Shown: piece after piece, positions 1,421-48,038 of the stretch | Numbering within the stretch: the first letter of the stretch is position 1 | How the letters are laid out: the number at the start of each line of letters is the position of its first letter | Origin: a virus | Taxonomy: Duplodnaviria > Heunggongvirae > Uroviricota > Caudoviricetes | IMG/VR virus record: IMGVR_UViG_3300011840_000036 | Coordinates: 1-48,038 of that record | Length of the DNA: 48,038 nt | Strand: one strand, 5' to 3' | Program-made: the position numbers and the translations under genes | The notes under the pieces: generated by a model | The model's database searches: none | Seen by the model: the letters and a program-made list of their open reading frames with translations, nothing else | Told to the model about the DNA's origin: nothing

Positions 1421-3859
1421 TTAAAAATCAGACTGATTCGGGATCAGTTTTTGCCAGATTGCTGAAACGTATTTCGCCTGGTGACGGGCATCATCCAGCG
1501 CATTGTGGCGTATGCCTTCGAATTGAATAGGCGTCCTGGCATCGAAGTCTATGGATTTTCCCAGTTCAATGATTGTGCGTACATCGCGATCGTTGTAGTA
1601 GCGCCACGGGCAGGGGATACCCTGCCGTTCATATGAACGGCGCAAAATCACGTTGTTGAAGTTGGCTCCATTTCCCCAGACCTGAACAAACAATTCACCG
1701 GAGTTTTCGGCGATAAATTCCCGCAATTGCAGCAGTGCATCATCTAACGGGATTTCATCGGTCAGAATGGCAGATTGCGCTTCGCGTGATTGCTTCAGCC
1801 ACCACTTGATCGCGTCCCGATCAATGACTCCGCCAGCAGTTTCCAGATCGATGGTTTTATTAAATTCTGGTCCCATCTCTCCGGTTTGCGGATCGAAAAA
1901 TATTGCACCTATTGAGATAATCGGGGAATCAGGATTTTTTCCCATTGTTTCAAGGTCGATCATCAGATGGTGACACATTCTGCTGGTGGATGTTCTTTTC
2001 TGATGACCGTGCATATTAATTAAGGAATTTGTCGTCCTGTCAGTTTTATCACCGCTATTGTTATGCTGATTGCTGTCAGTATTTTCCGGATGCGGATGTT
2101 CAGGGTTTTCCATCTCCTCCGGAGCTTTTTCCTGAGATTCATCTGAATCTTCCTCGCAGAATGTCTCATGGTAAGTTGCGTCGCCCATTACTGAGGCACA
2201 GTCAGGGCATGTGCCCCCGCCAGTTTCCCCACAAACATTACAGGGATTTTTCTGTGCATGTTGCGCTGCTGGCTCCGGATGTATCGTTTTTGGTTCATTT
2301 TGGTGTGCATCCTGGCTATTTTGTCCCGATTCTGGCTTGGTTTGTTCCACTTCTGGTTGATTCTGGTTCGAAGACTCGCGAGTCTGGAGCCCCTTAACCC
2401 ATTTCGGATCATTCGGGTCACTAATCCCTTCAACAAATTCTCCGCGAGAGGCTGCCAGTAATTTGTTTGCGTCGACAGGATTTTTAGGCGAAATGTTTTT
2501 CCTAGCTTCATGGAGTTCTGCCCGCAGTTTCTGATATTTCGCATAAACAGAATTCACCTGTGGCTGAGCATCCACCGGCTGCGTGTCCGGATGATGTTCA
2601 GTTGCATCCGGTTCCACTGTTTCAGCCGTTGCCTGTTCATCTGCCATTGCGCCAGATGGTTGCGGTTTTTCTTCATCATGTTTTTCTTTTTCAGTTACAC
2701 GCTGCGGCATCGGGGCAGAGGAGCGACCGCAGGCAATATCCACGATTTCCGGATCAGGGTTGGCATGATCGGTTTCAGTCAGCACTTTATTCAGGTATTC
2801 GGTGACACGGTGGGGCATAGCCTCTATACCAACTGGTGCTTCTTTCACGGAGGCAACCACGATGGCACGGGAGAAATCCTTGTGGCCCGGCATGGTGATG
2901 AATTTGCTGAAGAAAACAGAAAAGGGCGGTTTATTTTCAGCGATAATTTCCTCGACGCGTTTAGCGTGTGCCGGATGAAGGTTATAAATGTCCACGTCCA
3001 TTGAACGGGCCAGCACGCCAGTGGCTACGTCGCGCGCCAGTGATGCATCATCGTGTACAAAACCTTCGCCGCGATCGGTAAGAATACCGCCGCCAGCGTT
3101 AGCGCCGGATGGTGTGCGGCTGATTCGCGAAACATGATTTCCTTTCATCCACTCTTTTGTAAGCAGACCGCGATTGGTGTAGTCAGCGTCCAGGTATGCT
3201 TCGATGAAGGAAGTCATCAGTCCCAGGTCTGAATTTACGGGGGCGGGAAAAACTTTGTCAGTGTCCCGCACCAGTTTGTACAAATCCCGAATCTCCAGCG
3301 GTTCGAGTTGCACTGCTTTATTTGAGATGGCCAGAGCGGTAACGGCGGGAAGTTTTTCTTCCTGTGCGTTATGTAATGCCCGCAGTTCATCCCGTGAAAC
3401 ATGCGTGACAGGTTTTTCGCTGCCGTGCTGTGCCAGCCATCTAACAGGCAGAAGCTGACCTGAAACCGGCAGAAGAATATTCTCCTCAATCTCAATCATG
3501 TCTTCGCCGTTGACGTTAGTATTAGCGGCGTTACTGTTTTCATCGCTGTTGCTGGACGGTACCGGCATCATTGTGATGCCATCTTCTCCACCTTTTTCGT
3601 AACGGTTACAGAAATCAGTATCAAATACGCCTTCAGGTGGCAGGTCATTTACAACAGGCAAATGGATGCGAACTGTTTTTTTGAAATCATCTTCGTCGTA
3701 GCCAGCATCGTCCATAGCGGCAATACAGCGGGAAACTGCAACGGAAAGTTTTTTGGCTTCGATCCAGAAAAAGCCACCTTTAATACCGAGACGCTTTCTG
3801 ACCTTGTCATTTTTAGCTTCGCAATATAGCGCAAACACTTCTTTATTCGTGCTCATCAA
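1421..3859 (-). CDS. Prophage exonuclease with C-terminal DnaQ-like 3'-5' exonuclease domain (often annotated exodeoxyribonuclease VIII)
   Basis: 812-aa ORF; C-terminal MIDLETMG...HNALDDARH is a DEDDh-type exonuclease signature; long acidic, low-complexity central region; sits at the lambda exo/bet position. Confidence 0.8.
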
Positions 3860-22431: not shown

Positions 22432-22690
22432 ATGAATCAGGCGGAATTCGCAAAACTTCACGGTGTCAGTCGCAAGACGGTAACGGCGTGGAAGGCCCGT
22501 GGCTGGCTGGTTCTGGACGGTGAGGACATCGATGTTGATGCCTCAAACGAGCGGATCCGGCGTTACCGGAAAACTGTTACCCGAATAAAAAATGAGCAAA
22601 AAGGTAACACTTTAGGTAACAGGGTAACATCCGAAGGTAACACTCCGGGTAACAACGAAGGTAACACTCCGGGTAACAACGAAGGTAACA
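22407..22690. repeat. Cluster of about 12 GGTAACA heptamers (3 upstream of terS, 9 inside it encoding Gly-Asn repeats, plus one inverted copy)
   Basis: Direct copies read at about 22407, 22414, 22424, 22603, 22615, 22623, 22636, 22648, 22660, 22672 and 22684; inverted TGTTACC at about 22576. Confidence 0.7.
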
Positions 22691-23073
22691 GCATTGCCCT
22701 GTACGATGACTCCTCTGATGTATCGAAAGAAGCACGGGTCGAACAGTTCATTGCCAGCCACGGAGCCATGATGACGCTCGATGAAGCCAGAACCATGAAA
22801 GAGAACTACTTCGCGCTGCTGGCAAAACTCGAGTATGACGAAAAGAAAGGAACACTGCTTCCCTGGAAACCCATCATTGAGCGGGTCGGGGCGGAGTATA
22901 CCCGGGTGAGGACGCGCCTTGTTGCCCTTGCGCCGGAACATGGTCCCCGTCTGCGGGCGCTGGCGGGGATGACAGACGATCAGGGATTCACGGCGGCATT
23001 GCAGGAACTGATTTACGAGGCGCTGAATGAACTTGCATTTGACAGGCGCGAAACCCACGGAGATACAGTTTGA
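22432..23073 (+). CDS. Terminase small subunit (lambda Nu1-like, N-terminal HTH)
   Basis: 213-aa ORF; N-terminus MNQAEFAKLHGVSRKTVTAWKARGW resembles the Nu1 DNA-binding domain; overlaps the terL start; internal GNTPGNNE repeats. Confidence 0.85.
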   Translation: MNQAEFAKLHGVSRKTVTAWKARGWLVLDGEDIDVDASNERIRRYRKTVTRIKNEQKGNTLGNRVTSEGNTPGNNEGNTPGNNEGNSIALYDDSSDVSKEARVEQFIASHGAMMTLDEARTMKENYFALLAKLEYDEKKGTLLPWKPIIERVGAEYTRVRTRLVALAPEHGPRLRALAGMTDDQGFTAALQELIYEALNELAFDRRETHGDTV

Positions 23074-26903: not shown

Positions 26904-27760
26904 ATCAACTTGCACTGTTAAGCCAGCGCCTGCTGAACACGCCGCTGGCCATTCATCCGCGAAAAGCGGAAATCATTGTTACGGCACTGGCAGAACGACT
27001 CGGGATCACCCGGATAAAAACGGGGGCCTGGTATGACGATGATGAAGACGATTTCTGCCGTCCCGCCCCTGAAAGCGGGTACGACATTCTGGAGGGGATC
27101 GCCATCATTCCCGTGCACGGCACCCTGGTACAGAAACTGGGGACGCTACGGCCTTACTCCGGCATGACGGGGTATGACGGCATCCGGCGAAATTTTCTGA
27201 CGGCGCTTAACGACCCTGATGTGAAGGGCATCTGTCTTGATATCGATTCACCCGGCGGAGAAGTGGCCGGGTGTTTTGATCTGGTGGACACGATTTTTGC
27301 CTGTCGCGGGCAGAAACCGGTGCACGCCATTCTCTCGGAGTCGGCGTACTCGGCGGCCTATGCCCTTGCCAGCGCCGCCGACCGGATCCTGGTCCCCCGC
27401 ACGGGCGGCGTGGGATCCGTCGGTGTCATCTACGTGCACTGTGACATGTCGCGCCAGATGAAGGATGAGGGGCTGAACGTGACCATCATCACCTGCGGCA
27501 GCCGGAAGGCGGAGACCAGTCCGCTGCGTCCGCTGAGTGAGGCGGCACAGGCGGCACTTCAGGCGGACACTGACGCTGCAGGCACGCTTTTTATCGAAAC
27601 CGTTGCCCGCAACCGTGGCATCAGCGCGGATGCGGTGCGTGCACTTGAGGCCCGGACGTTGCGGGCTGACGAAGGGGTGCAGGCAGGGCTTGCCGACGAC
27701 GTGATGTCGCCGGATGAGGCCTTTTCTTTTCTGTTAAAGGAGACAGCAAACAATGGGTAA
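26900..27760 (+). CDS. Head maturation protease (S49/ClpP-like, lambda gpC-like)
   Basis: 286-aa ORF; ...DIDSPGGEVAGCFDL...SAYSAAYALASAADRI... typical of S49 peptidases; follows the portal. Confidence 0.85.
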   Translation: MNQLALLSQRLLNTPLAIHPRKAEIIVTALAERLGITRIKTGAWYDDDEDDFCRPAPESGYDILEGIAIIPVHGTLVQKLGTLRPYSGMTGYDGIRRNFLTALNDPDVKGICLDIDSPGGEVAGCFDLVDTIFACRGQKPVHAILSESAYSAAYALASAADRILVPRTGGVGSVGVIYVHCDMSRQMKDEGLNVTIITCGSRKAETSPLRPLSEAAQAALQADTDAAGTLFIETVARNRGISADAVRALEARTLRADEGVQAGLADDVMSPDEAFSFLLKETANNG

Positions 27761-28331
27761 ATTTTCTTTCATGCACCTGGTAGGCATGGGCGATCGTTCG
27801 CGAATGGATGACGATCCGGAGGACAAACGCGACGGGGAGAATGCGGAGGATGACGAGGACCGTCGCGAAAGCCGTAAGGCGCGCTCCCGTGCGGGTGACG
27901 ACGATAACGACGACGACGGGCAGGCGGATGACGACGATGACCGCCGCGAAAGCCGTAAGGCGCGCTCCCGTGCGGATGATGACGATAACGACGACGATGA
28001 AAACGCAGAAGACGACGATGACGAAGAAAAGGCCCGTGCCAGTGAACGTCATCGCTGCGCAGCCATCTTCGCCACGCCGTATGCAGCGAAAAATCCAGCC
28101 CTTGCCGCAGAGCTGGCTTTCAACACCCGCATGAGTGTGAAACAGGCCAGAGCCGTGATGAAAGCGGCGGTGGCAGGGGGCGCAGGCCAGAAAGGCGGGC
28201 TGGCTGCCCGTATGCAGCATGTACCACAGCCGGGAACCGGACGTGATGTCCGCCCTGCACCGACGGAGGCGCACGCGATGGCGCAGCACGCCATGAAACT
28301 GTACAACGAGGCTATGGGGGGTAAAGCATAA
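27753..28331 (+). CDS. Scaffolding protein (Nu3-like) with acidic tandem repeats
   Basis: 192-aa highly acidic protein between protease and decoration/capsid genes. Confidence 0.75.
   Translation: MGKFSFMHLVGMGDRSRMDDDPEDKRDGENAEDDEDRRESRKARSRAGDDDNDDDGQADDDDDRRESRKARSRADDDDNDDDENAEDDDDEEKARASERHRCAAIFATPYAAKNPALAAELAFNTRMSVKQARAVMKAAVAGGAGQKGGLAARMQHVPQPGTGRDVRPAPTEAHAMAQHAMKLYNEAMGGKA
27858..27999 (+). repeat. Tandem direct repeat (about 81 bp x 2) inside the scaffold gene, encoding DRRESRKARSRA-DDDNDDD units
   Basis: Two near-identical copies of GACCGTCGCGAAAGCCGTAAGGCGCGCTCCCGTGCGG...GACGACGATAACGACGACGA. Confidence 0.7.
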
Positions 28332-38516: not shown

Positions 38517-38954
38517 ATGAGCGATATCACGCTTTTGTACGATGAAGAGGCGCTGCGGTGCGACTGGTCCGTGGGCACAGGTGACATTGTCTGCGGAAAT
38601 GATTTGCAGACGGCCATTCTCATCAGCCTGTTCACGGACAGGCTGGCGGATGCATCAGATGAGACGGATGACGGCAACCGGCGCGGATGGTGGGGTGACC
38701 TTGAGCAGGACTACCGGGTTGGTTCACGGCTGTGGCTGCTGCGCAGGCAGAAACTGACCACACAGGTGGCGCTTAAGGCGGAGGCATACGCCCGGGAGGC
38801 GCTGCAGTGGCTGAAGGATGACGGCGTGGTGGCCTCGCTGGATGTGGAGGCGTGGATAGTGCCGCCGGACCGGCTGTACATGACCATTGCATACCAGCGT
38901 CCGGATGCGGACACGACGGAATACCAGAAATTTTACCGGGTGTGGGAGGTATGA
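38517..38954 (+). CDS. Baseplate protein (Mu gp46-like)
   Basis: 145-aa ORF between the spike and J-like genes. Confidence 0.65.
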   Translation: MSDITLLYDEEALRCDWSVGTGDIVCGNDLQTAILISLFTDRLADASDETDDGNRRGWWGDLEQDYRVGSRLWLLRRQKLTTQVALKAEAYAREALQWLKDDGVVASLDVEAWIVPPDRLYMTIAYQRPDADTTEYQKFYRVWEV

Positions 38955-38955
38955 G

Positions 38956-40110
38956 ATGCCGTTTGAGCGTCCCGGATTAAGCGAACTGCGTGAGAAAAGC
39001 CGGTCGTATGTGACCGGCCAGCTGGATGAGGCCGGTGCCCTGCTGCGGTTTTCCACGCTGGGGATTCTGGCGGATGCCGTGGCGGGCATGACGCATCTGC
39101 ATTACGGCTATCTTGACTGGATAGCGCAGCAGTGCACACCGGCCACGGCCACCGGGGAATATCTGGCGGCGTGGGGGGCACTGAAGGGCATCATCCGCAG
39201 GGCAGCAGTGGCGGCCACCTGTGAGGCGGTGCGCTTTACGGGCACACCGGGCAGCACGGTGAGCGCGGAGGCGGTGCTGAACCGTGCGGACGGGTATCAG
39301 TACACGCTGGATGAGGATGTGAGCATTGACAGTGACGGCAGCGGCACGGGGAGCATCACGGCGGTGCTGCCGGACCCGACGGATGACCGCAGCGGCGGTG
39401 GTGATGACGGTAACGCGGATGCCGGAACGACCCTGACACCGGATGTCACCTGGTCAGGCATCGACTCAACGGTGACGATGGTGAGTGCCGCCACCGGCGG
39501 CAGTGACACTGAGGATGAGGAAGCGTACCGCCAGCGCGTGCTGTATGCGTACCAGAACCCGCCTCAGGGCGGGGCGGCGGCGGACTATGTGCAGTGGGCG
39601 CTGGAAGTTCCCGGTGTGACCCGTGCATGGTGTGTGAACCGTGCACTGGGGTTCGGGACGGTGGGTGTTTACATCATGACGGACGGAGATGATGAAGACA
39701 ACGCCGGGGGCTTTCCTGACGGCACGGACGGGGTGGCAACGGATGAGGACTGGACGGACCGGAAAGCCACGGGGGTGCAGCTGACGGTGGCGGACCATAT
39801 CCGGCAGTACCAGCCGGTCACGGCGGTGGTGTACGTGATGTCGCCGGTGGCCAGAAGCATTGATTTTGAGATACAGGGGCTGAGCAGTGCCACGGCGGCA
39901 CTGAAGGCACGGGTGGAGAGTGCCATCAGCGAGGTGCTGTACAACGTGGGTGAACCGGACGGCAGCGGGGTGATTCACCTTTCAGACCTCTGGTACGCCA
40001 TTGCGGACACAGAGGGGACAGACGGGTTCATTCTGGTGTCTCCTGACAGCAACATCACGCTGTCGCAGGGAGAGCTGCCGGTGACCGGAACGATAACCTG
40101 GGCAACATGA
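38956..40110 (+). CDS. Baseplate J-like protein (Mu gp47-like)
   Basis: Start at MPFERPGLSELREKS... (ORF track begins upstream at a TTG, 38887); about 384 aa. Confidence 0.75.
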   Translation: MPFERPGLSELREKSRSYVTGQLDEAGALLRFSTLGILADAVAGMTHLHYGYLDWIAQQCTPATATGEYLAAWGALKGIIRRAAVAATCEAVRFTGTPGSTVSAEAVLNRADGYQYTLDEDVSIDSDGSGTGSITAVLPDPTDDRSGGGDDGNADAGTTLTPDVTWSGIDSTVTMVSAATGGSDTEDEEAYRQRVLYAYQNPPQGGAAADYVQWALEVPGVTRAWCVNRALGFGTVGVYIMTDGDDEDNAGGFPDGTDGVATDEDWTDRKATGVQLTVADHIRQYQPVTAVVYVMSPVARSIDFEIQGLSSATAALKARVESAISEVLYNVGEPDGSGVIHLSDLWYAIADTEGTDGFILVSPDSNITLSQGELPVTGTITWAT

Positions 40111-43100
40111 GGAACAGGATGAGTCGTTTTTCACATGATGACTACACGCGCGCGATGCTGAACCTTCTGCCGTCAGGGATTGCCTGGAGCCGTCTGCCTG
40201 ACAGCGTGCAGCACCGGCTGATACGCGGACTGGCACAGGCGTACCGGCAGAGTGACGCTGATGCGTGCGCACTGATAACGGGCGCCTTCCCGGAAACGGC
40301 GGATGCGCTCACTGATGAGTGGTATGCCTCGCTGGGGCTGAATGATGAATGCGGGACGCAGGCATCCACCACAGACCCGGCGCAGGCCAGAAAATTCATT
40401 CTGGCGAAACTGCTGTCGACGGGCGGGCAGAGTGTGGCGTATTTCACGGAGCTTGCGGCGACGATGGGGTACAGCATCAGTATCCGTGAGTACCGCACAC
40501 CACTGTGCGGATTTTCGTGGAGCGGGCATCTGCTGAGTGACGACAACCGGTTTAACTGGACCGTGGTGGTGGCCCCGCCGGGGGATGAGGTGACCACCTC
40601 ACGGGCGTACCTGGAGTGCCTGTTTCGTCGTTATGCCCCGGCGCATACGCTGGTGACGTTTGAGTGGCAGTTATCGTACAGCGCCGCCCTGAGCATTGCA
40701 TGGGACAACATCACACACGTTCTTTCCGGCGCGCTCACGGCAGATGAGGGGGTGGTGGTGTCGGGGGTGACGGTGAATGTTGTCATCAAATCCGCGTCGG
40801 GACAGCGGTATGTGGCGACAGTGACAACGGACAGTGAAGGGCACTGGTCGTATGAAATGGAGGATGATGATTTTGCGAACGGCTGGTATTCGGCGTATGC
40901 AGAGGCTGCCGTTGACATGCCGGATGACGTGACAGTACCGGTACGCAGTGAGGTGATAAATCTGCGGAAAACCGTGAGTGTGCGCGGTGTGAGCCTGTCG
41001 GTCACTGAGCTGGAGCTTGACAATGATGAGTGTGCTGCGGTTGCGGTGAGTGTCTGGCCGGAGAATGCTGAAGACCGGAGCTGGACTGTGACGGTCAGCG
41101 ATGAAAGCGTGGTGTCGGTGGTGGTCAACAGCGACAGTTCACTGACCGTGTGCGGGATGAGCGAAGGTGATGCGGTGGTGACGGTGACGACAAATGACGG
41201 CGGACACACGGCAACATTACAGGTCAGCTGTTACGTGCCGGCGGTTTTTGATTCGGTCTGTGCTTCATCGTCAAAAGCGCTGGTCAGTGTTGCTGATGTG
41301 GTGAACTGCCGTGTCAGCTTCGGCGACGGATATGTTGCTGCGGACCAGCTTGAAACGACAACCAGCGGGGGCTGGGCGAATATCCTGTTACCCGACTCAC
41401 TGGCAGACGGGGAGCTCCGGACAATCAGGGTGAGAACGGCGGGGAGTGTCAGGTTCAGGGTGTACGGGTACAGCAGCACGGCTTACAACGACCTGGTCAG
41501 ACTACGTCAACTTCCGGCGGGACAAAAATCCTGTAGCTACCTTGCGAGTAATACCCCCAGTCTGGTGAGTATTGACAGCGGCGCATTCCGTTTTTGCAAA
41601 AACGCTACGGCATTCGACAGTGCATTTTACCGGTGTAAAGGACTGACTGCGATACCTCCGGGGCTGTTTGCTGAGTGCGCCAGCGCCACGACGTTCTATC
41701 AGGCATTTTACGAATGTACGGGACTCAATGCAGTCGGTGACAGCGCATTTGCCGGGTGCACCGGTGCCACAACGTTTAAGGATACCTTTCGTGGTTGTAC
41801 CGGACTGAGAACGGTGGGTGACAGCGTGTTTGCCGGGTGCACCGGTGCCACAACGTTTGAGGATACCTTTTATGGTTGTACCGGACTGAGTGCCGTGGGG
41901 GACCATGTGTTTGCCGGGTGCACCAGTGCGACAACATTTTACAGGGTCTTTTATAACTGCAGGGAACTGAGCACGGTGGGTAACAGCGTGTTTGCCGGAT
42001 GTGCCAGTGCCACAACGTTTTTGCAGGCCTTTTATGGCTGCCAGGCGCTGACATCATTAGGTCAGGGGATATTTGCAGACTGCACCGGGGTGACGACATT
42101 CCTCCAGGCTTTTTATAACTGCAGGGGACTGACGGCATTGCCGGAAGGGATGTTTGACAGCTGCACTGCCGTGACCACGTTCAGTAATGCCTTTTATGGC
42201 TGCACGGCTCTGACAGCAATACCGGAAGGGTTGTTTGACAGTTGTACCGGGGTGACGACATTCAACCGGACGTTTTATGGCTGCGCGGCCCTGACAGCGA
42301 TACCGGCAAAATTGTTCGCAAACTGCACAGAGGTTGCGACGTTTGAGGGGGTGTTTTCGGGATGCTCGGGGCTGGTAACGATACCGGCAGGGTTATTTGA
42401 AAAACTCACCAGTGTCACGACGTTTGACAGCGCGTTTTACGGGTGCAGGGCACTGACAACAGTGGGTGACAGAGTATTTGCTGGTTGTACAGGTACCACA
42501 ACATTCGCAAGCGTATTTGAAGGTTGCACCGGACTGGTCACGATACCGGCTGACGTGTTTGCTGGTTGTTCGGGTGTCAGATCGTTTTACCGGTCGTTTT
42601 TGGGGTGTACAGGACTGGCAATGGTCCCCCCGGAATTGTTTGCAGATTGTACCGGAGCCACGACGTTCTATACGACATTTTACCGTTGTACCCGTCTGTC
42701 GGAAGTTCCTGCAGAGTTGTTTTCCGGTTGTACCGGAGCAAAGTCTTTCTATAAGACTTTTGGCGAATGTACCGGGTTGTCGGAGGTACCGGCCAGATTA
42801 TTTGCAGACTGTACCGGTGCCACGACGTTTGAGGGGGTGTTTTCGGGATGCCGGGGGCTGACAACGATACCGGCAGGGTTGTTCGCTGACAGCGCCAGTG
42901 TCACCACTTTCTTTGAGGCGTTTTACGAATGCACGGGCCTGACCGCGATACCGTCAGGATTGTTTGCAGACTGTGTAAGTGTGACAACCTTCAGGCGGAC
43001 CTTTTACGGTTGTTCCGGGCTGAGAACGCTGGGCGACAATGTGTTTGCCGGTTGTGTCAGTGCCACAACGTTTGAAGACACCTTTTATGGTTGTACCGGG

Positions 43101-44450
43101 CTGACAACGGTGGGAGACGGCGTGTTTGCCGGATGTACCAGTGTTACGACGTTCTACCGGGCGTTTTACGGCTGTACGGGGCTGACATCCATAGGAGAGG
43201 GAGTGTTTGCAGGTTGTACTGCTGTGACGACGTTCAGTAGTGCTTTTTATAACTGCAGGGGACTGACGGCATTGCCGGAAGGGATGTTTGACAGCTGCAC
43301 TGCCGTGACCACGTTCAGTAGTGCTTTTTATGGCTGTACGGCTCTGACAGCGATACCGGCAGGGCTGTTTGACAACTGCGTCTCTGTGACGACGTTCAGT
43401 TATGCCTTTGGCGACTGTGTGAGACTGAAGGCGCTGCCTGCCGGGCTGTTTGAAAACTGTAGTCGTGTGACGACCTTCTTCCGGACGTTTTATGGCTGCA
43501 CGGAACTGGTAACGGTGGGGGAAAGGGCGTTTGCAGGCTGCAGCAGTGCATCGACGTTCGAAGGCACATTTTACGACTGCACGAAGCTGACAACGCTGGG
43601 AGACAGTGTATTTGACGGATGTACAGGTGTGACGTCGTTCTATCAGACTTTCAGTGGCTGCACGAAGCTGACAGCAATACCTGCAGGGCTGTTTGACAGC
43701 AGCCACGGCGTGACAACCTTCTACCGGACATTTTACCGGTGTGCCGCCCTGACGACGGTGCCTGAGGCGGTATTTGACCGTTGTGTCAGCGCAGGGTCTT
43801 TCCAGGATACGTTTTTCGGTTGTACGGGGCTGACGATGTTACCTGCAGGATTGTTTGATAACTGTACCCGTGTGACGTCGTTTTACCGGACGTTCCGGGG
43901 CTGTACAGGTCTGAAGACACTGCCGGAAGGGTTGTTTGACAACAACACTGCTGTGACCACGTTCAGTCAGACTTTTTACGGCTGTACGGGGCTGGCGGTG
44001 CTGCCTGCCGGGCTGTTTGAAAACTGTACCGGAGTGACATCGTTCTATCAGACCTTTGATGGTTGCACGGGGCTGATGACGATACCGGACGGACTGTTTG
44101 CAGGACTCGCCAGCGTCACAACATTCAGAGAGACCTTTAACGGTTGTACGGGGCTGACCACTGTGGGCGACGGCTTGTTTGCGGGGTGCGTCAGTGCGAC
44201 GACGTTTGAAGGCACCTTTTACGGTTGCACAGGGCTGGAGAGTGATGTGAATGACATCCTCCCGGCGGAAGAGTACCCGCAAATAACCAGTGTGTACCGT
44301 TGTTTTTACAACTGCCGGTCATTGCAGGGAAGCGGATGTGCGCTCATTGAGAAGTTGCCTGGCGTGACGAGTTACGCGGATGCGTTTTATAACTGCGTAT
44401 CCCTGAGCGATTTCAGGACCTTGTCTGAGCGTTATCCAGTCTGGGTTTAA
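40107..44450 (+). CDS. Giant chimeric tail protein: N-terminal Mu gp48/YmfQ-like baseplate domain, Ig-like (Big_2-type) domains, then about 33 cysteine-rich 27-residue BspA-type leucine-rich repeats
   Basis: Single uninterrupted 1447-aa ORF; start overlaps the J-like stop; N-terminal ~190 aa resemble YmfQ/gp48; central segment VSVWPENAEDRSWTVTVSDESVVSVVVNSDSSLTVCGMSEGDAVVTVTT is Big_2-like; the remainder repeats the FxGCTGLTxIPxGLFxxCTxVTTFxxxF unit. Confidence 0.8.
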   Translation: MRNRMSRFSHDDYTRAMLNLLPSGIAWSRLPDSVQHRLIRGLAQAYRQSDADACALITGAFPETADALTDEWYASLGLNDECGTQASTTDPAQARKFILAKLLSTGGQSVAYFTELAATMGYSISIREYRTPLCGFSWSGHLLSDDNRFNWTVVVAPPGDEVTTSRAYLECLFRRYAPAHTLVTFEWQLSYSAALSIAWDNITHVLSGALTADEGVVVSGVTVNVVIKSASGQRYVATVTTDSEGHWSYEMEDDDFANGWYSAYAEAAVDMPDDVTVPVRSEVINLRKTVSVRGVSLSVTELELDNDECAAVAVSVWPENAEDRSWTVTVSDESVVSVVVNSDSSLTVCGMSEGDAVVTVTTNDGGHTATLQVSCYVPAVFDSVCASSSKALVSVADVVNCRVSFGDGYVAADQLETTTSGGWANILLPDSLADGELRTIRVRTAGSVRFRVYGYSSTAYNDLVRLRQLPAGQKSCSYLASNTPSLVSIDSGAFRFCKNATAFDSAFYRCKGLTAIPPGLFAECASATTFYQAFYECTGLNAVGDSAFAGCTGATTFKDTFRGCTGLRTVGDSVFAGCTGATTFEDTFYGCTGLSAVGDHVFAGCTSATTFYRVFYNCRELSTVGNSVFAGCASATTFLQAFYGCQALTSLGQGIFADCTGVTTFLQAFYNCRGLTALPEGMFDSCTAVTTFSNAFYGCTALTAIPEGLFDSCTGVTTFNRTFYGCAALTAIPAKLFANCTEVATFEGVFSGCSGLVTIPAGLFEKLTSVTTFDSAFYGCRALTTVGDRVFAGCTGTTTFASVFEGCTGLVTIPADVFAGCSGVRSFYRSFLGCTGLAMVPPELFADCTGATTFYTTFYRCTRLSEVPAELFSGCTGAKSFYKTFGECTGLSEVPARLFADCTGATTFEGVFSGCRGLTTIPAGLFADSASVTTFFEAFYECTGLTAIPSGLFADCVSVTTFRRTFYGCSGLRTLGDNVFAGCVSATTFEDTFYGCTGLTTVGDGVFAGCTSVTTFYRAFYGCTGLTSIGEGVFAGCTAVTTFSSAFYNCRGLTALPEGMFDSCTAVTTFSSAFYGCTALTAIPAGLFDNCVSVTTFSYAFGDCVRLKALPAGLFENCSRVTTFFRTFYGCTELVTVGERAFAGCSSASTFEGTFYDCTKLTTLGDSVFDGCTGVTSFYQTFSGCTKLTAIPAGLFDSSHGVTTFYRTFYRCAALTTVPEAVFDRCVSAGSFQDTFFGCTGLTMLPAGLFDNCTRVTSFYRTFRGCTGLKTLPEGLFDNNTAVTTFSQTFYGCTGLAVLPAGLFENCTGVTSFYQTFDGCTGLMTIPDGLFAGLASVTTFRETFNGCTGLTTVGDGLFAGCVSATTFEGTFYGCTGLESDVNDILPAEEYPQITSVYRCFYNCRSLQGSGCALIEKLPGVTSYADAFYNCVSLSDFRTLSERYPVWV
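41580..44420 (+). repeat. 81-bp-periodic coding repeat array with long near-identical copies (about 80 nt perfect identity at about 42109..42186 and 43243..43320)
   Basis: Direct comparison of the two copies shows an identical stretch followed by about 90 percent identity over a further ~60 nt; spacing 1134 bp (14 x 81). Confidence 0.75.
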
Positions 44451-44496: not shown

Positions 44497-45288
44497 GTGA
44501 AGAAAATATCTGATATCACACCGTATGTTGATGAAAACGACGAGTTTACTGACGGCGCGCCTGCCACAGGGCTGAAGCCAACGCCGTTGCTGGCGGCGTG
44601 GTTTAACCTCATTCAGCGGGAGCTGGTGAAGGTGGTGGAGGGGGCCGGGCTGACGCTGGATCCGACAGATGACACACAGCTCTGGCAGGCGTTATCGAAA
44701 TACTTTGCCTCACAGGAGAATGTGAACACTGCCATGGGTGCTCTGGGTACGATGGCCGGTCAGAACAGTGATGCGGTGGATATCACCGGCGGCGCGATAA
44801 CAGGGACATCCCTCACTGGCGATCTGACGGGCAATGCGGATACAGCCACAAAACTGAAAACGGGCCGGACAATCCAGGTAAATCTTGGCAGTACGGGTGC
44901 AGTTACTTTTGATGGCAGTGCGAATGTCACGCCGGGCGTGACCGGCACATTGCCGGTGAGCAGTGGTGGTACCGGGGCCACCACTGCGTCAGGGGCCAGA
45001 ACAAATCTGGGGCTGGGAGATGTGGCAACCCAGAATCTGAGTACGCTCGATGCCCGTTACCTGCTGACGACGGGCGGTGTGTCGGCGGTAAGGCTGGGGA
45101 GTGCCAGTTCGTATATCCCTCCCGGTAACGAAGTATCGTGGACCAGTAATCTCTCCTCCGGAAATGTGCTCACAGGGATTATTGTTCAGGAAACGGGATC
45201 AAACTCGGCAGACAATATTGGTGGGGTTTATTACCGCCAGTTGCAGTATTGCATAAACGGCACCTGGTATTCAGCTGAATCGCTATAG
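44497..45288 (+). CDS. Short tail fibre protein with P2 gpH-like C-terminal tip
   Basis: 263-aa ORF, GTG start with AAGGAG RBS; C-terminal ...QYCINGTWYSAESL resembles the P2 gpH C-terminus as recalled; Gly/Thr-rich segments; followed by a tail fibre assembly gene. Confidence 0.75.
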   Translation: MKKISDITPYVDENDEFTDGAPATGLKPTPLLAAWFNLIQRELVKVVEGAGLTLDPTDDTQLWQALSKYFASQENVNTAMGALGTMAGQNSDAVDITGGAITGTSLTGDLTGNADTATKLKTGRTIQVNLGSTGAVTFDGSANVTPGVTGTLPVSSGGTGATTASGARTNLGLGDVATQNLSTLDARYLLTTGGVSAVRLGSASSYIPPGNEVSWTSNLSSGNVLTGIIVQETGSNSADNIGGVYYRQLQYCINGTWYSAESL

Positions 45289-45297
45289 GATGAAAAT

Positions 45298-45837
45298 ATG
45301 CAGAATATAAAAAATTTCACGAAATACACCCCGGACAACCCGCCAGTGGAAGGGGCGGGATATCTCATCAGTGAGGATGGTCAGGACTGGTATGAATGCC
45401 AGACGCAGTTTGCAGAGGATACATACAAAGTTGCGTATGACAGTGACGGTATCGTGCGCAGTATTTCGACCGATGTGTCGGCACTTTGTCCTGTCAGTCT
45501 GAGTGTTGCTGAGGTTGAGTCGCTGCCGGACGGTGCGGATATCGACGGCAACTGGGTGTTTGACGGGGAGAGTGTGGTTGCGCGGACGCTGACGGCAGCG
45601 GAGTGGCAGGCAAGGGCGGAATCGCAACGAAGCGCGCTGATATCGGATGCGAAGGCGACAATCAGCCTCTGGCAGTCAGAGCTTCTGCTGGGCACCATCA
45701 GTGATGATGACAAAGAGAGTCTGACGGAATGGCTGGCTTACATAAAGGCGCTTCAGGCGCTGGATTTAAGTGATGTGACGGATGAGTCGAGTTACAACGC
45801 GACAGTCTGGCCGGATGAGCCGGGAGTCACCGCATAA
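45298..45837 (+). CDS. Tail fibre assembly protein (Tfa, P2 gpG/Mu U-like)
   Basis: 179-aa ORF immediately after the fibre gene; N-terminus MQNIKNFTKYTPDNPP typical of Tfa proteins. Confidence 0.75.
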   Translation: MQNIKNFTKYTPDNPPVEGAGYLISEDGQDWYECQTQFAEDTYKVAYDSDGIVRSISTDVSALCPVSLSVAEVESLPDGADIDGNWVFDGESVVARTLTAAEWQARAESQRSALISDAKATISLWQSELLLGTISDDDKESLTEWLAYIKALQALDLSDVTDESSYNATVWPDEPGVTA

Positions 45838-46056: not shown

Positions 46057-46857
46057 TTATTTATAAGAGTTAGATTTACTCTCAGTGCGTTTTTGTAACC
46101 AGTTTTTTAATATTGTATTTACTTCTTTTGCATGAGTGACATTCAATGCATGATTGGCGTCAGGTATAACTGCAAGCTCAGAGTGCGGGATCATTTTGTG
46201 CATTTCAAGAGCTTTCTCCAGTGGTATTCCTGTATCACCGGATCCATGAAGAATCAGGGTGGGCGTTTTGATCGTATGAACTTTACCTGAAATATCGTCT
46301 CGCTCCAGCATTGCATTCATAGCTAGTTTGATGTTTTCAGGTTCATGACGTAGCCATACTTGTCTCCATTTCGCTGCTTCAGAGATATTCTTTCCAAAGA
46401 AAACGGGTAATAATGAGGATATTATCTCTTCTTTTATTAGTGAGTTATGCCATCCATTGCATAGTTCCATATAACTGGATGCAATTTCTGGCGGGTCCTG
46501 CTCGACCTGAGTTGCCATAAGAATTAGTCCTGACAAACGCTCTGGATGTGACAGGGCAAATCGTAATGATATATACCCTCCCATCGACATCCCCCCTAAA
46601 ATAAACTTATCCAGTTGTAGTGAGTCTGCGACGTTTACAATGTCATCAACGATGTCATAGAGCGAGAATGGCTCAGTTTTTTCGGAGGTGGCATCGAAAC
46701 CCCGAACATTAATGCAAACAACTCTATGTTTTTCTTTTAGTTCGTCAAACTGGTATTTGAACATTTCATTATTCATGAAAAATCCATGAACGAAAATGAT
46801 AGGGGGATTGTTTTTATTTGTTTCAGTGTATCCAGAGTCAGTAAACGTAAAATTCAT
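46057..46857 (-). CDS. Alpha/beta-fold hydrolase (serine esterase/lipase-type), AT-rich cargo gene
   Basis: 266-aa ORF with nucleophile elbow GGMSMGG and a plausible Ser-Asp-His triad (HGSGDTG, ANHALN); markedly lower GC than the flanking tail genes. Confidence 0.8.
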   Translation of the reverse strand: MNFTFTDSGYTETNKNNPPIIFVHGFFMNNEMFKYQFDELKEKHRVVCINVRGFDATSEKTEPFSLYDIVDDIVNVADSLQLDKFILGGMSMGGYISLRFALSHPERLSGLILMATQVEQDPPEIASSYMELCNGWHNSLIKEEIISSLLPVFFGKNISEAAKWRQVWLRHEPENIKLAMNAMLERDDISGKVHTIKTPTLILHGSGDTGIPLEKALEMHKMIPHSELAVIPDANHALNVTHAKEVNTILKNWLQKRTESKSNSYK

Positions 46858-47474: not shown

Positions 47475-48038
47475 CTAAAGCTGCATCAGCCTTTCCACCA
47501 GTTGTTCTTTACGGGCAACGAGCCAGCCGTGTTGCTCCAGATAAAATTTAAACCGTTCCAGAGTGCATACCATCGCATCGGCGGGGACTTTTTCTGTGAA
47601 CTCTACCTGACCGTGTTTATCGAAGTGGATCAGTAATGCGCATCCATCATTTACGGTGGGGGTGTTTTGTGTTGCTGGTGGCTGTTTCTGGCTGAAATAA
47701 CAGTCTTCCAGTTTTTCGAACACTTCCCACGCCTGATCTGTTTCGAGCATTTTGGCGTGGCGGGCTGCGCCACGTTCTGTCCATAGGATGAGGGAGCGGG
47801 CTTTGGGAGATATGGGGTTTTGTGACTTACTTAAAGTAAGTCGCAAATTTTTTAATTCTTCACCCGATGCTTTAAAAAAGTGCTTTCCTTCGACAAAACG
47901 CTCTTTGTTTCTGGTGAAGTTAACCTGGATATTCAGAATTTCGGTGCCATAAAGCTGCGCCAAAAGTTCGGTGGTAATAACAGGGATCTGGTTATGGGTG
48001 ATCGGGGTGAGAGTTTCAACAGAGATTTGAGTGGCCAT
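47475..48038 (-). CDS. Phage antirepressor (AntA/ORF6N-type N-terminal domain; C-terminal domain shared with the Rha protein at 4245..4799)
   Basis: 187-aa ORF whose ATG sits at the last three bases of the window; C-terminal ...HFDKHGQVEFTEKVPADAMVCTLERFKFYLEQHGW parallels ...HFDERGNIKFTETVPDGALVCTLDTFRFYLEKQGW in the Rha protein. Confidence 0.75.
   Translation of the reverse strand: MATQISVETLTPITHNQIPVITTELLAQLYGTEILNIQVNFTRNKERFVEGKHFFKASGEELKNLRLTLSKSQNPISPKARSLILWTERGAARHAKMLETDQAWEVFEKLEDCYFSQKQPPATQNTPTVNDGCALLIHFDKHGQVEFTEKVPADAMVCTLERFKFYLEQHGWLVARKEQLVERLMQL

Follow-up and report, generated by a model that had tools for sequence, protein, structure and literature searches.

A near-identical patch in the 81-nt leucine-rich repeat array of a prophage baseplate wedge gene as a probable recombination footprint

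The window analysed here is the whole 48,038-nt stretch of IMG/VR virus record IMGVR_UViG_3300011840_000036 (Caudoviricetes), and the gene of interest, at 40119-44450, encodes a putative baseplate wedge protein of 1443 amino acids, the C-terminal 960 residues of which arise from 81-nt leucine-rich repeat (LRR) units, 33 in number. Coordinates are those of the window, and features lie on the plus strand unless the minus strand is stated. Comparison with related alleles shows that this array changes length by recombination between its own units, in register and in frame. A near-identical segment shared by two distant units is probably a short footprint of this process, left behind in an array whose units recombine homologously with one another as it evolves.

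According to the unit list and identity matrix, the array extends from 41562 to 44234 and consists of 33 units of 27 codons (U1-U33) that stay in register without any indel. All exact internal repeats of at least 17 nt are spaced at multiples of 81, so that the strict 81-bp periodicity claimed in the initial annotation is confirmed. The unit consensus, L-T-x-I/V-P/G-x-G-L-F-x-x-C-T-x-V-T-T-F-x-x-x-F-x-G-C-T-G, includes a scaffold of residues with conserved codons (L1, F9, C12, T16-T17-F18, F22 and C25), and the variable residues are found at defined unit positions, with an entropy of about 3 bits at positions 19-20. Over 528 pairs the mean identity between units is 59.3% (standard deviation 7.6), and agreement at third codon positions is normally 25-50%. 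One pair stands out, U8 and U22 being 96% identical, followed by the next best unit pairs at 86% and 85%. The array is not uniform but a mosaic: its units are 59% identical, and it contains one recent patch.

The core of this patch is an exact repeat of 79 nt (42108-42186 and 43242-43320), with both copies in the same open reading frame (ORF) at an offset of 1134 nt, which equals 14 x 81 nt or 378 codons. Near-identity runs on to 42240 and 43374, giving 133 nt with 6 mismatches (95.5%). The initial annotation had described two copies of about 140 bp, with about 80 nt perfectly identical, lying 1134 bp apart in frame; the core and the spacing are upheld, and the length is corrected to 133 nt. 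Copy 1 (42108-42240) begins 21 nt before the end of U7, runs through U8 and stops after 31 nt of U9, and copy 2 (43242-43374) occupies the same parts of U21, U22 and U23, the sequences flanking the patch being the U7-specific GACATTCCTCCAGGC and the U23-specific AACTGCGTCTCTGTG. The left edge is sharp, with six mismatches in a row at 42102-42107, and the right edge is gradual, as 42187-42240 is 89% identical versus 61 +/- 8% at the same unit positions of other pairs. The 79-nt core is identical at all 26 third codon positions, and a run of this length at 59% identity has a probability of about 1e-18 per start position; therefore, neither chance nor constraint at the protein level explains it. 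The same 79-nt repeat occupies the same positions in four other independent assemblies (L004, L005, L006 and L013), three of which are complete RefSeq chromosomes from different laboratories and one an IMG/VR contig. At the same 14-unit offset as U8/U22, the pairs U6/U20 and U7/U21 are 77% and 75% identical, respectively, which suggests an older block duplication that may have given the pairing.

Related alleles were collected from loci of complete E. coli genomes, four IMG/VR contigs, one metagenome contig and proteins of draft genomes, and their units were named by the best window unit and then tested against two-parent hybrid models. Eleven full-length alleles were examined together with two proteins, one complete and one partial, and these represent about nine structural classes, designated by unit number as 18, 18', 19, 20, 33, 33', 34 and 34'; the differences always amount to whole units and all of the ORFs are intact. 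The order U1-U33 of the window is found again in L004 (human, UK), L005 (baboon, Gambia), L006 (cow) and L013. A 20-unit allele (L011, source genome IMG 2713896795) contains units 1-9 and 23-33, a 19-unit allele (L016, from the metagenome contig at 3x coverage, ERZ773149) contains units 1-18 followed by a unit termed 33b, and the 18-unit allele of E. coli E24377A (L003/L014) contains units 1-4, 6-18 and 33b, without U5 and U19-32. The 18 units of P0025 are 1-16, a U17/U18 hybrid and 33b. Among the long alleles, L002 has 33 units of a different composition (1-19, a U20/U17 hybrid, a copy of U18, a U20/U7 hybrid, units 9-18 again and 33b), and L001 and L012 have 34, being like L002 plus one unit. 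The partial protein P0036 shows a two-unit loss in the form of a U7/U9 hybrid, and its unit total is unassigned. The E24377A allele (L003, 4013-6547) additionally lacks 194 residues of the N-terminal region, including the bacterial immunoglobulin-like Big_2 domain, and this allele resides in a prophage in decay, where capsid, portal-region and ORF6N genes persist as truncated pseudogenes. That array length differs among related prophages, as the initial annotation anticipated, is thus borne out, with 18, 19, 20, 33 and 34 units recorded in place of one identical length.

The junctions of these alleles fall at matching unit positions. Relative to the window type, L011 has 1053 nt (13 units) fewer, and on either side of the junction the two types are about 99% identical; the two arms of the L011 junction share an 18-nt identity, CTGACAGCGATACCGGCA, located in the head of U10 (42291-42308) and again in the head of U23 (43344-43361), 1053 nt or 13 units away, and adjoining the patch. 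Two hybrids fit their parents with 0 mismatches each, namely positions 1-21 of U6 joined to 22-81 of U5, and positions 1-59 of U20 joined to 60-81 of U17. The former corresponds to the head of U5 (41886-41906), which in five other alleles is replaced exactly by the head of U6 (41967-41987), with the differences clustered at 41891-41906, and which appears to be a second short conversion tract. Exact internal duplications measure 656 nt in L002 (14-unit offset), 572 nt in L001 and 802 nt in L012 (both at a 15-unit offset). Two 3' haplotypes were distinguished, U23-33 with cap a and 33b with cap b, both joined to copies of U1-U18 that are about 100% identical, a pattern that on comparison of the sequences shows inter-allelic exchange. 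The 19-unit form was also considered as a U19/U33 hybrid deletion of the window type and this origin was rejected: 33b is 8 mismatches from U33 and a two-parent model fits no better, and 33b therefore belongs to a different 3' haplotype.

U3 (41724-41804) likewise exists in two forms that are 74% identical, one in the window, L004, L005 and L016 and the other, termed 3b, in L006, L013, L011, L001, L002, L003 and L012. No two-unit hybrid of window units accounts for 3b, which probably came from an unsampled allele.

The taxonomic range of the gene is narrow. It was matched at all in nine of 5426 complete E. coli genomes, three of which carry the 33-unit form; megablast against the phage collection gave no near match, and a protein scan and a 30-mer scan of GTDB with one genome per species gave no match. 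Searches of a set of 5.8 billion proteins with the whole protein or its C-terminal part were flooded by unrelated LRR proteins and yielded almost no close relatives, and only an N-terminal query was successful. The element seems to be confined to a minority of E. coli.

These patterns lead to a simple scheme, in which the shared scaffold codons make any misaligned pairing of units fall in register. As the comparison of alleles shows, whole units are gained or lost by unequal exchange between units, and short non-reciprocal exchange (gene conversion) replaces part of one unit by another; both processes leave hybrid units, and the frame is never broken. The simplest reading of the 133-nt patch is a recent short conversion tract, and since the 14-unit offset is the same at both of its edges, array length would have been left unchanged. 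Conversion probably ran from U8, which every allele contains in identical form, to U22, which occurs only in the 33-unit alleles of the window type. Apart from the 79-mer, the longest exact repeats measure 30, 29 and 29 nt, and the patch, as the only exact repeat above 30 nt in the window allele, would be the best remaining substrate for further exchange. Such exchange, whether by host RecA pathways or by prophage recombination functions, should be rare and would not constitute a programmed switch.

Several observations weigh against this scheme. No allele with a pre-conversion U22 was found, and the conversion is deduced from the pattern; several orders of events fit the allele series, in which deletion and insertion are not polarised. 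The 33-unit form is unchanged in five lysogens, the exchange product predicted for the two patch copies was not found among the alleles, a small sample, and the short alleles L016 and P0025, both from short-read assemblies, may be long-duplication alleles that collapsed during assembly. Moreover, the left edge of the patch, at unit position 61, coincides with the U20/U7 breakpoint at positions 59-60 in L001, L002 and L012, and the patch could instead be the remnant of a duplication junction. According to this alternative, an old duplication placed a second copy of a block (the tail of U7, U8 and U9 onward) downstream, the patch is what survives of the left end of that block, and the rest was later replaced by the divergent U23-U33 through recombination with another allele. 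Block duplications of this kind are present in those same three alleles, one of which (L001) keeps the U7 tail and U8 head at its duplication junction, and the two 3' haplotypes attest to the inter-allelic exchange that the replacement would involve. However, at least two events and an unobserved parent are needed, the two forms have different units ahead of the patch (U21 and the L001 hybrid head are only 70-74% identical), and the common breakpoint falls among the best-conserved codons of the unit (TTT TAT ... TGC), where crossovers would resolve anyway. A junction remnant is regarded as possible but unlikely, and the conversion tract is retained as the preferred reading.

Other explanations of the near-identity or of the array as a whole fare less well. 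It might be supposed that the array is a programmed, contingency-like device that varies host range at high frequency, perhaps driven by a RecE-like function, since many structural classes occur among few genomes, a RecE-type exonuclease gene lies at 1421-3859 of the same prophage, and the variable residues occupy fixed positions (19-20) of the LRR. This is quite improbable in view of the identical 33-unit structure of five lysogens from different hosts and continents, 21-62 substitutions apart, the presence of just one exact repeat above 30 nt in the window allele, and a Klebsiella P2-like homologue that has the same 27-residue array and no exact DNA repeat of at least 25 nt, from which it follows that the family needs no homogeneity at the DNA level; in addition, the 24 window ORFs scanned with Pfam revealed no annealing-protein partner, no invertase and no reverse transcriptase in the vicinity of the gene. 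An artefact of assembly or polishing, with reads of one unit placed on another, would be in keeping with the error-prone nature of repeat arrays and with the mostly fragmented draft assemblies of this gene, and the initial annotation had itself raised it as a reason for doubt. It is very improbable, as the repeat recurs in four other independent assemblies with the same coordinates and the same six flanking mismatches, and these three RefSeq chromosomes and one IMG/VR contig have their own single-nucleotide polymorphisms (SNPs) elsewhere. Finally, purifying selection or convergence might keep the two copies alike if the protein depended on an identical stretch of 27-44 residues at either site; the segment does encode conserved scaffold residues and both copies are kept in five genomes. 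This explanation is scarcely credible given the identity at every third codon position of the core against the usual 25-50%, the 59% identity of other units with the same scaffold, and the existence of alleles without U22 (L011, L003 and L016).

The initial annotation further proposed that RecA-dependent or slipped-strand recombination between the two copies would delete or duplicate 14 repeats without disturbing the frame. The arithmetic is sound, as a crossover between the copies would shorten the array by 14 units to 19 or extend it by 14 units to 47, with the frame kept. The event itself is not supported: neither its deletion product (U1-7, U8/22, U23-33) nor the 47-unit form is present in the alleles examined, and the variants observed used other junctions, namely the 18-nt identity of L011 and the U20/U17, U20/U7, U7/U9 and U17/U18 hybrids. 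At 79 bp the core exceeds the minimum of about 25 bp for RecA/RecBCD exchange, rare recombination is expected at a spacing of 1.1 kb, and phage functions of the RecE type use about 40-50 bp. The five 33-unit alleles of the window type, which are 21-62 substitutions apart in the gene and have SNPs of their own, retain patch and structure unchanged, and the U8/U22 pair has not recombined over this divergence in five E. coli from different hosts. The patch pair seems to be a potential substrate but no fast switch.

With respect to prophage functions, the 1421-3859 gene (minus strand) encodes an 812-residue protein with a RecE-like Exonuc_VIII domain and a C-terminal Rv2179c-like 3'-5' exonuclease domain. 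This recombination function could act on the repeats; the window ORFs scanned included no RecT-like partner.

The gene was also predicted to be a likely site of short-read assembly collapse. This prediction agrees with the draft sequences, as two protein clusters at 90% identity, with 65 and 43 members, are largely made up of partial proteins that end at residues 699-738, and all 24 contigs read for one cluster end at the same base within the array, equivalent to window position 42235 and inside copy 1. The 79-nt patch is not upheld as the cause. It was considered as the main reason for contig ends at this base, 128 nt past the patch start, and rejected: the exact duplications of the sister alleles (572-802 nt) start at window-equivalent positions 42216-42237, and the contigs that break carry the unit-3b haplotype of the L002/L012 group, in which the duplications (656-802 nt) start at the equivalent of 42216. 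The breaks are more probably due to these long duplications. By the same token, the 19-unit L016 and the 18-unit P0025, which is known as a protein only, from a 199-kb NCBI contig taken to be draft, could be collapsed duplicated alleles; this is unlikely for E24377A, a finished genome, and for L011, with a junction identity of just 18 nt.

The assignment of the host gene to the baseplate rests on domain matches and on gene position, by which its product is a putative baseplate wedge protein. An alternative ATG at 40107 gives 1447 residues and a start that overlaps the stop of the upstream gene; RefSeq homologues begin at the equivalent of 40119 and are annotated as 'leucine-rich repeat protein'. 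The N-terminal domain of the Mu gp48/YmfQ type (40152-40664; Phage_Mu_Gp48, PF10076, residues 16-186 of the 1447-residue ORF) was matched with E = 1.2e-20 and 74.4 bits against the curated Pfam cut-off of 37.4, and the N-terminus also belongs to PHROG 203, 'baseplate wedge subunit' (E = 2.5e-43). It is followed by the Big_2 domain (40980-41225; PF02368, residues 292-373, 28 bits), the 33-unit array, which Pfam matches as LRR_5 (BspA-type) in six stretches with 120 bits against a gathering cut-off of 27.7, and two degenerate capping units up to the stop at 44450 (44235-44450), the latter recognised from the unit register and from an AlphaFold model. The gene order gp44-gp45-gp46-gp47(J)-gp48-fibre-chaperone is the same in all related loci. 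Genes of the Mu-type gp44/P, gp45 and gp46 precede a baseplate J/Mu gp47-type gene directly upstream (38887-40110; PF04865, E = 6.6e-56), and downstream lie a short tail-fibre gene of 263 codons (44497-45288; PHROG tail-fibre families with E down to 1e-31) and a gene for a tail-fibre assembly protein, or chaperone (45298-45837; PF02413 Caudo_TAP, PHROG 136).

The region from U23 to the C-terminus was modelled with AlphaFold from 60 metagenomic homologues that have the common 27-residue consensus LTSIPxGLFxNNxxVTxFxxxFxxCxx. The model has a predicted local distance difference test (pLDDT) score of 90.3, a predicted template modelling (pTM) score of 0.89 and one main beta-strand per 27 residues. 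Helices occur at 302-305, 312-325 and 357-363, of which helix 312-325 is within a low-confidence stretch (312-338). The best Foldseek matches were LRR proteins (4fs7 as the leading one, with LRRTM2, designed LRRs and 4gt6) with a probability of 1.0 and template modelling (TM) scores of only 0.3-0.5. One 81-nt unit is predicted from this model to form one 27-residue coil of an LRR solenoid, which would explain why changes by whole units are tolerated. If the number and order of units changed, a solenoid projecting from the baseplate would become longer or shorter or would present another surface, and this would plausibly alter what the virion binds.

Each 27-residue unit contains two similar half-motifs, F-x-x-C-T (9-13) and F-x-G-C-T (22-26), and the AlphaFold model has a weak second strand at the half period; the LRR unit may derive from a half repeat of 13-14 residues. 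Long antisense ORFs were noted on the minus strand within 41502-44282, for example 42954-43706 (250 amino acids) and 43839-44282 (147 amino acids), and are most likely a non-genic by-product of the periodic codon pattern.

Among known LRR proteins, the array is closest to the BspA type (LRR_5, PF13306; for instance BACOVA_04585 of Bacteroides ovatus, 4fs7), as indicated by the strong Pfam match, the predicted solenoid and a motif in which L, F and C are conserved as scaffold residues and the intervening positions vary. However, the phage array has 33 perfectly periodic units and forms the C-terminal extension of a phage baseplate wedge protein, in contrast to a cell-surface protein. The wedge proteins Mu gp48, e14 YmfQ and P2 gpI share the N-terminus (PF10076 and PHROG 203) and the gene order, but typical members have about 190-390 residues and the protein described here is about 1250 residues longer. 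The same layout of wedge, Big_2 and 27-residue LRR units is found in 'tail protein I' of the Klebsiella P2-like phage ST16-OXA48phi5.4, the gene of which contains no exact DNA repeat of at least 25 nt. The C-terminal extension of the wedge protein is a swappable module. Two further relatives carry other extensions in place of Big_2 and the LRR array: an 87%-identical gp48 homologue of 389 residues (L015, 7001-8170 of IMGVR_UViG_2671180921_000015) has four tandem 16-residue repeats (TQEPLVINRVMLQSGR), and P0003 (547 residues) has several Big_2 domains.

Length-polymorphic intragenic repeats are well known from the alpha C protein of group B Streptococcus and the 102-nt repeats of Xanthomonas transcription activator-like (TAL) effectors, and comparable cases are unequal crossing-over in the LRR regions of plant nucleotide-binding LRR (NLR) proteins and the collagen-like repeats in host-range genes of Streptococcus thermophilus phages. 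The present array resembles them in its long in-frame units, whole-unit gain and loss, hybrid units and conversion patches, and both features of a length-variable intragenic tandem repeat, whole-unit differences among close relatives and in-register hybrid junctions, were found. In comparison with alpha C or TAL arrays, its units are far more diverged (59% identity); therefore, exchange has only a small number of short substrates, and the array seems to be considerably more stable. Phage host-range variation is otherwise served by dedicated systems, such as the Gin-inverted G segment of Mu, Pin inversion in e14, and the diversity-generating retroelement (DGR) of Bordetella phage that acts on Mtd. 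These have in common with the present gene a location at the end of a Mu-type tail module and a presumed binding protein as the target. However, the surroundings of the gene showed neither an invertase or inverted repeats nor a reverse transcriptase or template repeat, the Pfam scan having covered 24 of the window ORFs, and the differences between the patch copies (A/G, C/T, C/T, A/G, A/C and T/C) are mixed, without the adenine-specific pattern of a DGR. Unlike in the DGR and inversion systems, variation here appears to proceed via general homologous recombination.

The repeats are also reminiscent of the PARCEL class (TIGR02167/DUF285), which has a 25-residue unit with the motif W-D-x-S-N-V-T-x-M...F-N-Q-D-I, for which intragenomic shuffling was proposed, and in which dyad symmetry was reported (Roske et al. 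2010, PMC2996958). Common to the two are a tandem arrangement, variable sequence around conserved hydrophobic positions, a repeat number that differs between ORFs and an association with mobile elements, but the phage unit has 27 residues and an F-x-x-C motif. TIGR02167 gave a weak summed score for the whole protein (83.6 bits against a cut-off of 30) and no single stretch passes, a match that does not establish membership in the PARCEL class.

Among the papers searched, nothing relevant was found on a phage gp48-LRR protein or on LRR tail proteins with variation in repeat number. Homologous recombination among intragenic repeats is a textbook process, and the result is useful rather than surprising: it provides an unusually clean natural allele series in which a repeat gene of a phage baseplate changes both length and composition with the frame kept. 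The layout of wedge, immunoglobulin-like domain and long LRR solenoid is present in enterobacterial phages with Mu-type tails as well as in P2-type phages, and a gene now annotated only as 'leucine-rich repeat protein' becomes a candidate determinant of host range or adhesion. In practical terms, short-read assemblies of the gene are usually truncated and may be collapsed, and unit counts from draft genomes are untrustworthy. It is conceivable, if rather doubtful at present, that the gp48-Big_2-LRR protein is a second, baseplate-borne receptor-binding or surface-binding module of SfV/e14-like phages, the specificity of which is diversified by shuffling of LRR units. The shuffling would then consist of gain, loss, block duplication and short conversion of 27-residue units, and would amount to a cassette-like system with the logic of TAL effectors or lamprey variable lymphocyte receptors (VLRs) that operates on general recombination, possibly aided by a RecE-type function.

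The remainder of the window is prophage sequence that includes a lambda-type integrase, the RecE-like exonuclease, a lambda-type terminase, a portal, an S49 protease and gpD and gpE head genes. Lambda-like head genes are thus combined with contractile Mu-like tail genes in a prophage that we take to be an SfV/e14-like mosaic. Beyond the tail module, an alpha/beta-hydrolase gene (46057-46857) and an ORF6N-domain gene (47475-48038) lie on the opposite (minus) strand; the former is intact in the window and in L004-L006, whereas DS26-1 and E24377A carry it as two fragments. Just past the tail module of strain 'numer 3' lies the transfer-messenger RNA gene ssrA, which suggests the attachment site. 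Two other short tandem repeats were noted in the window. A 24-nt repeat (22622-22690; 2.8 copies, 95% match) within an ORF just upstream of the large terminase gene (22432-23073; 213 amino acids, no Pfam match) could be another in-frame length-variable site. A second repeat with an 81-nt period (27843-28022; 2.2 copies, 86% match) is found in an acidic ORF of 192 amino acids without a Pfam match (27753-28331), located between the S49 protease and the gpD-like decoration gene; its product is probably a scaffold-like protein, and the period that it shares with the LRR array looks like a coincidence.

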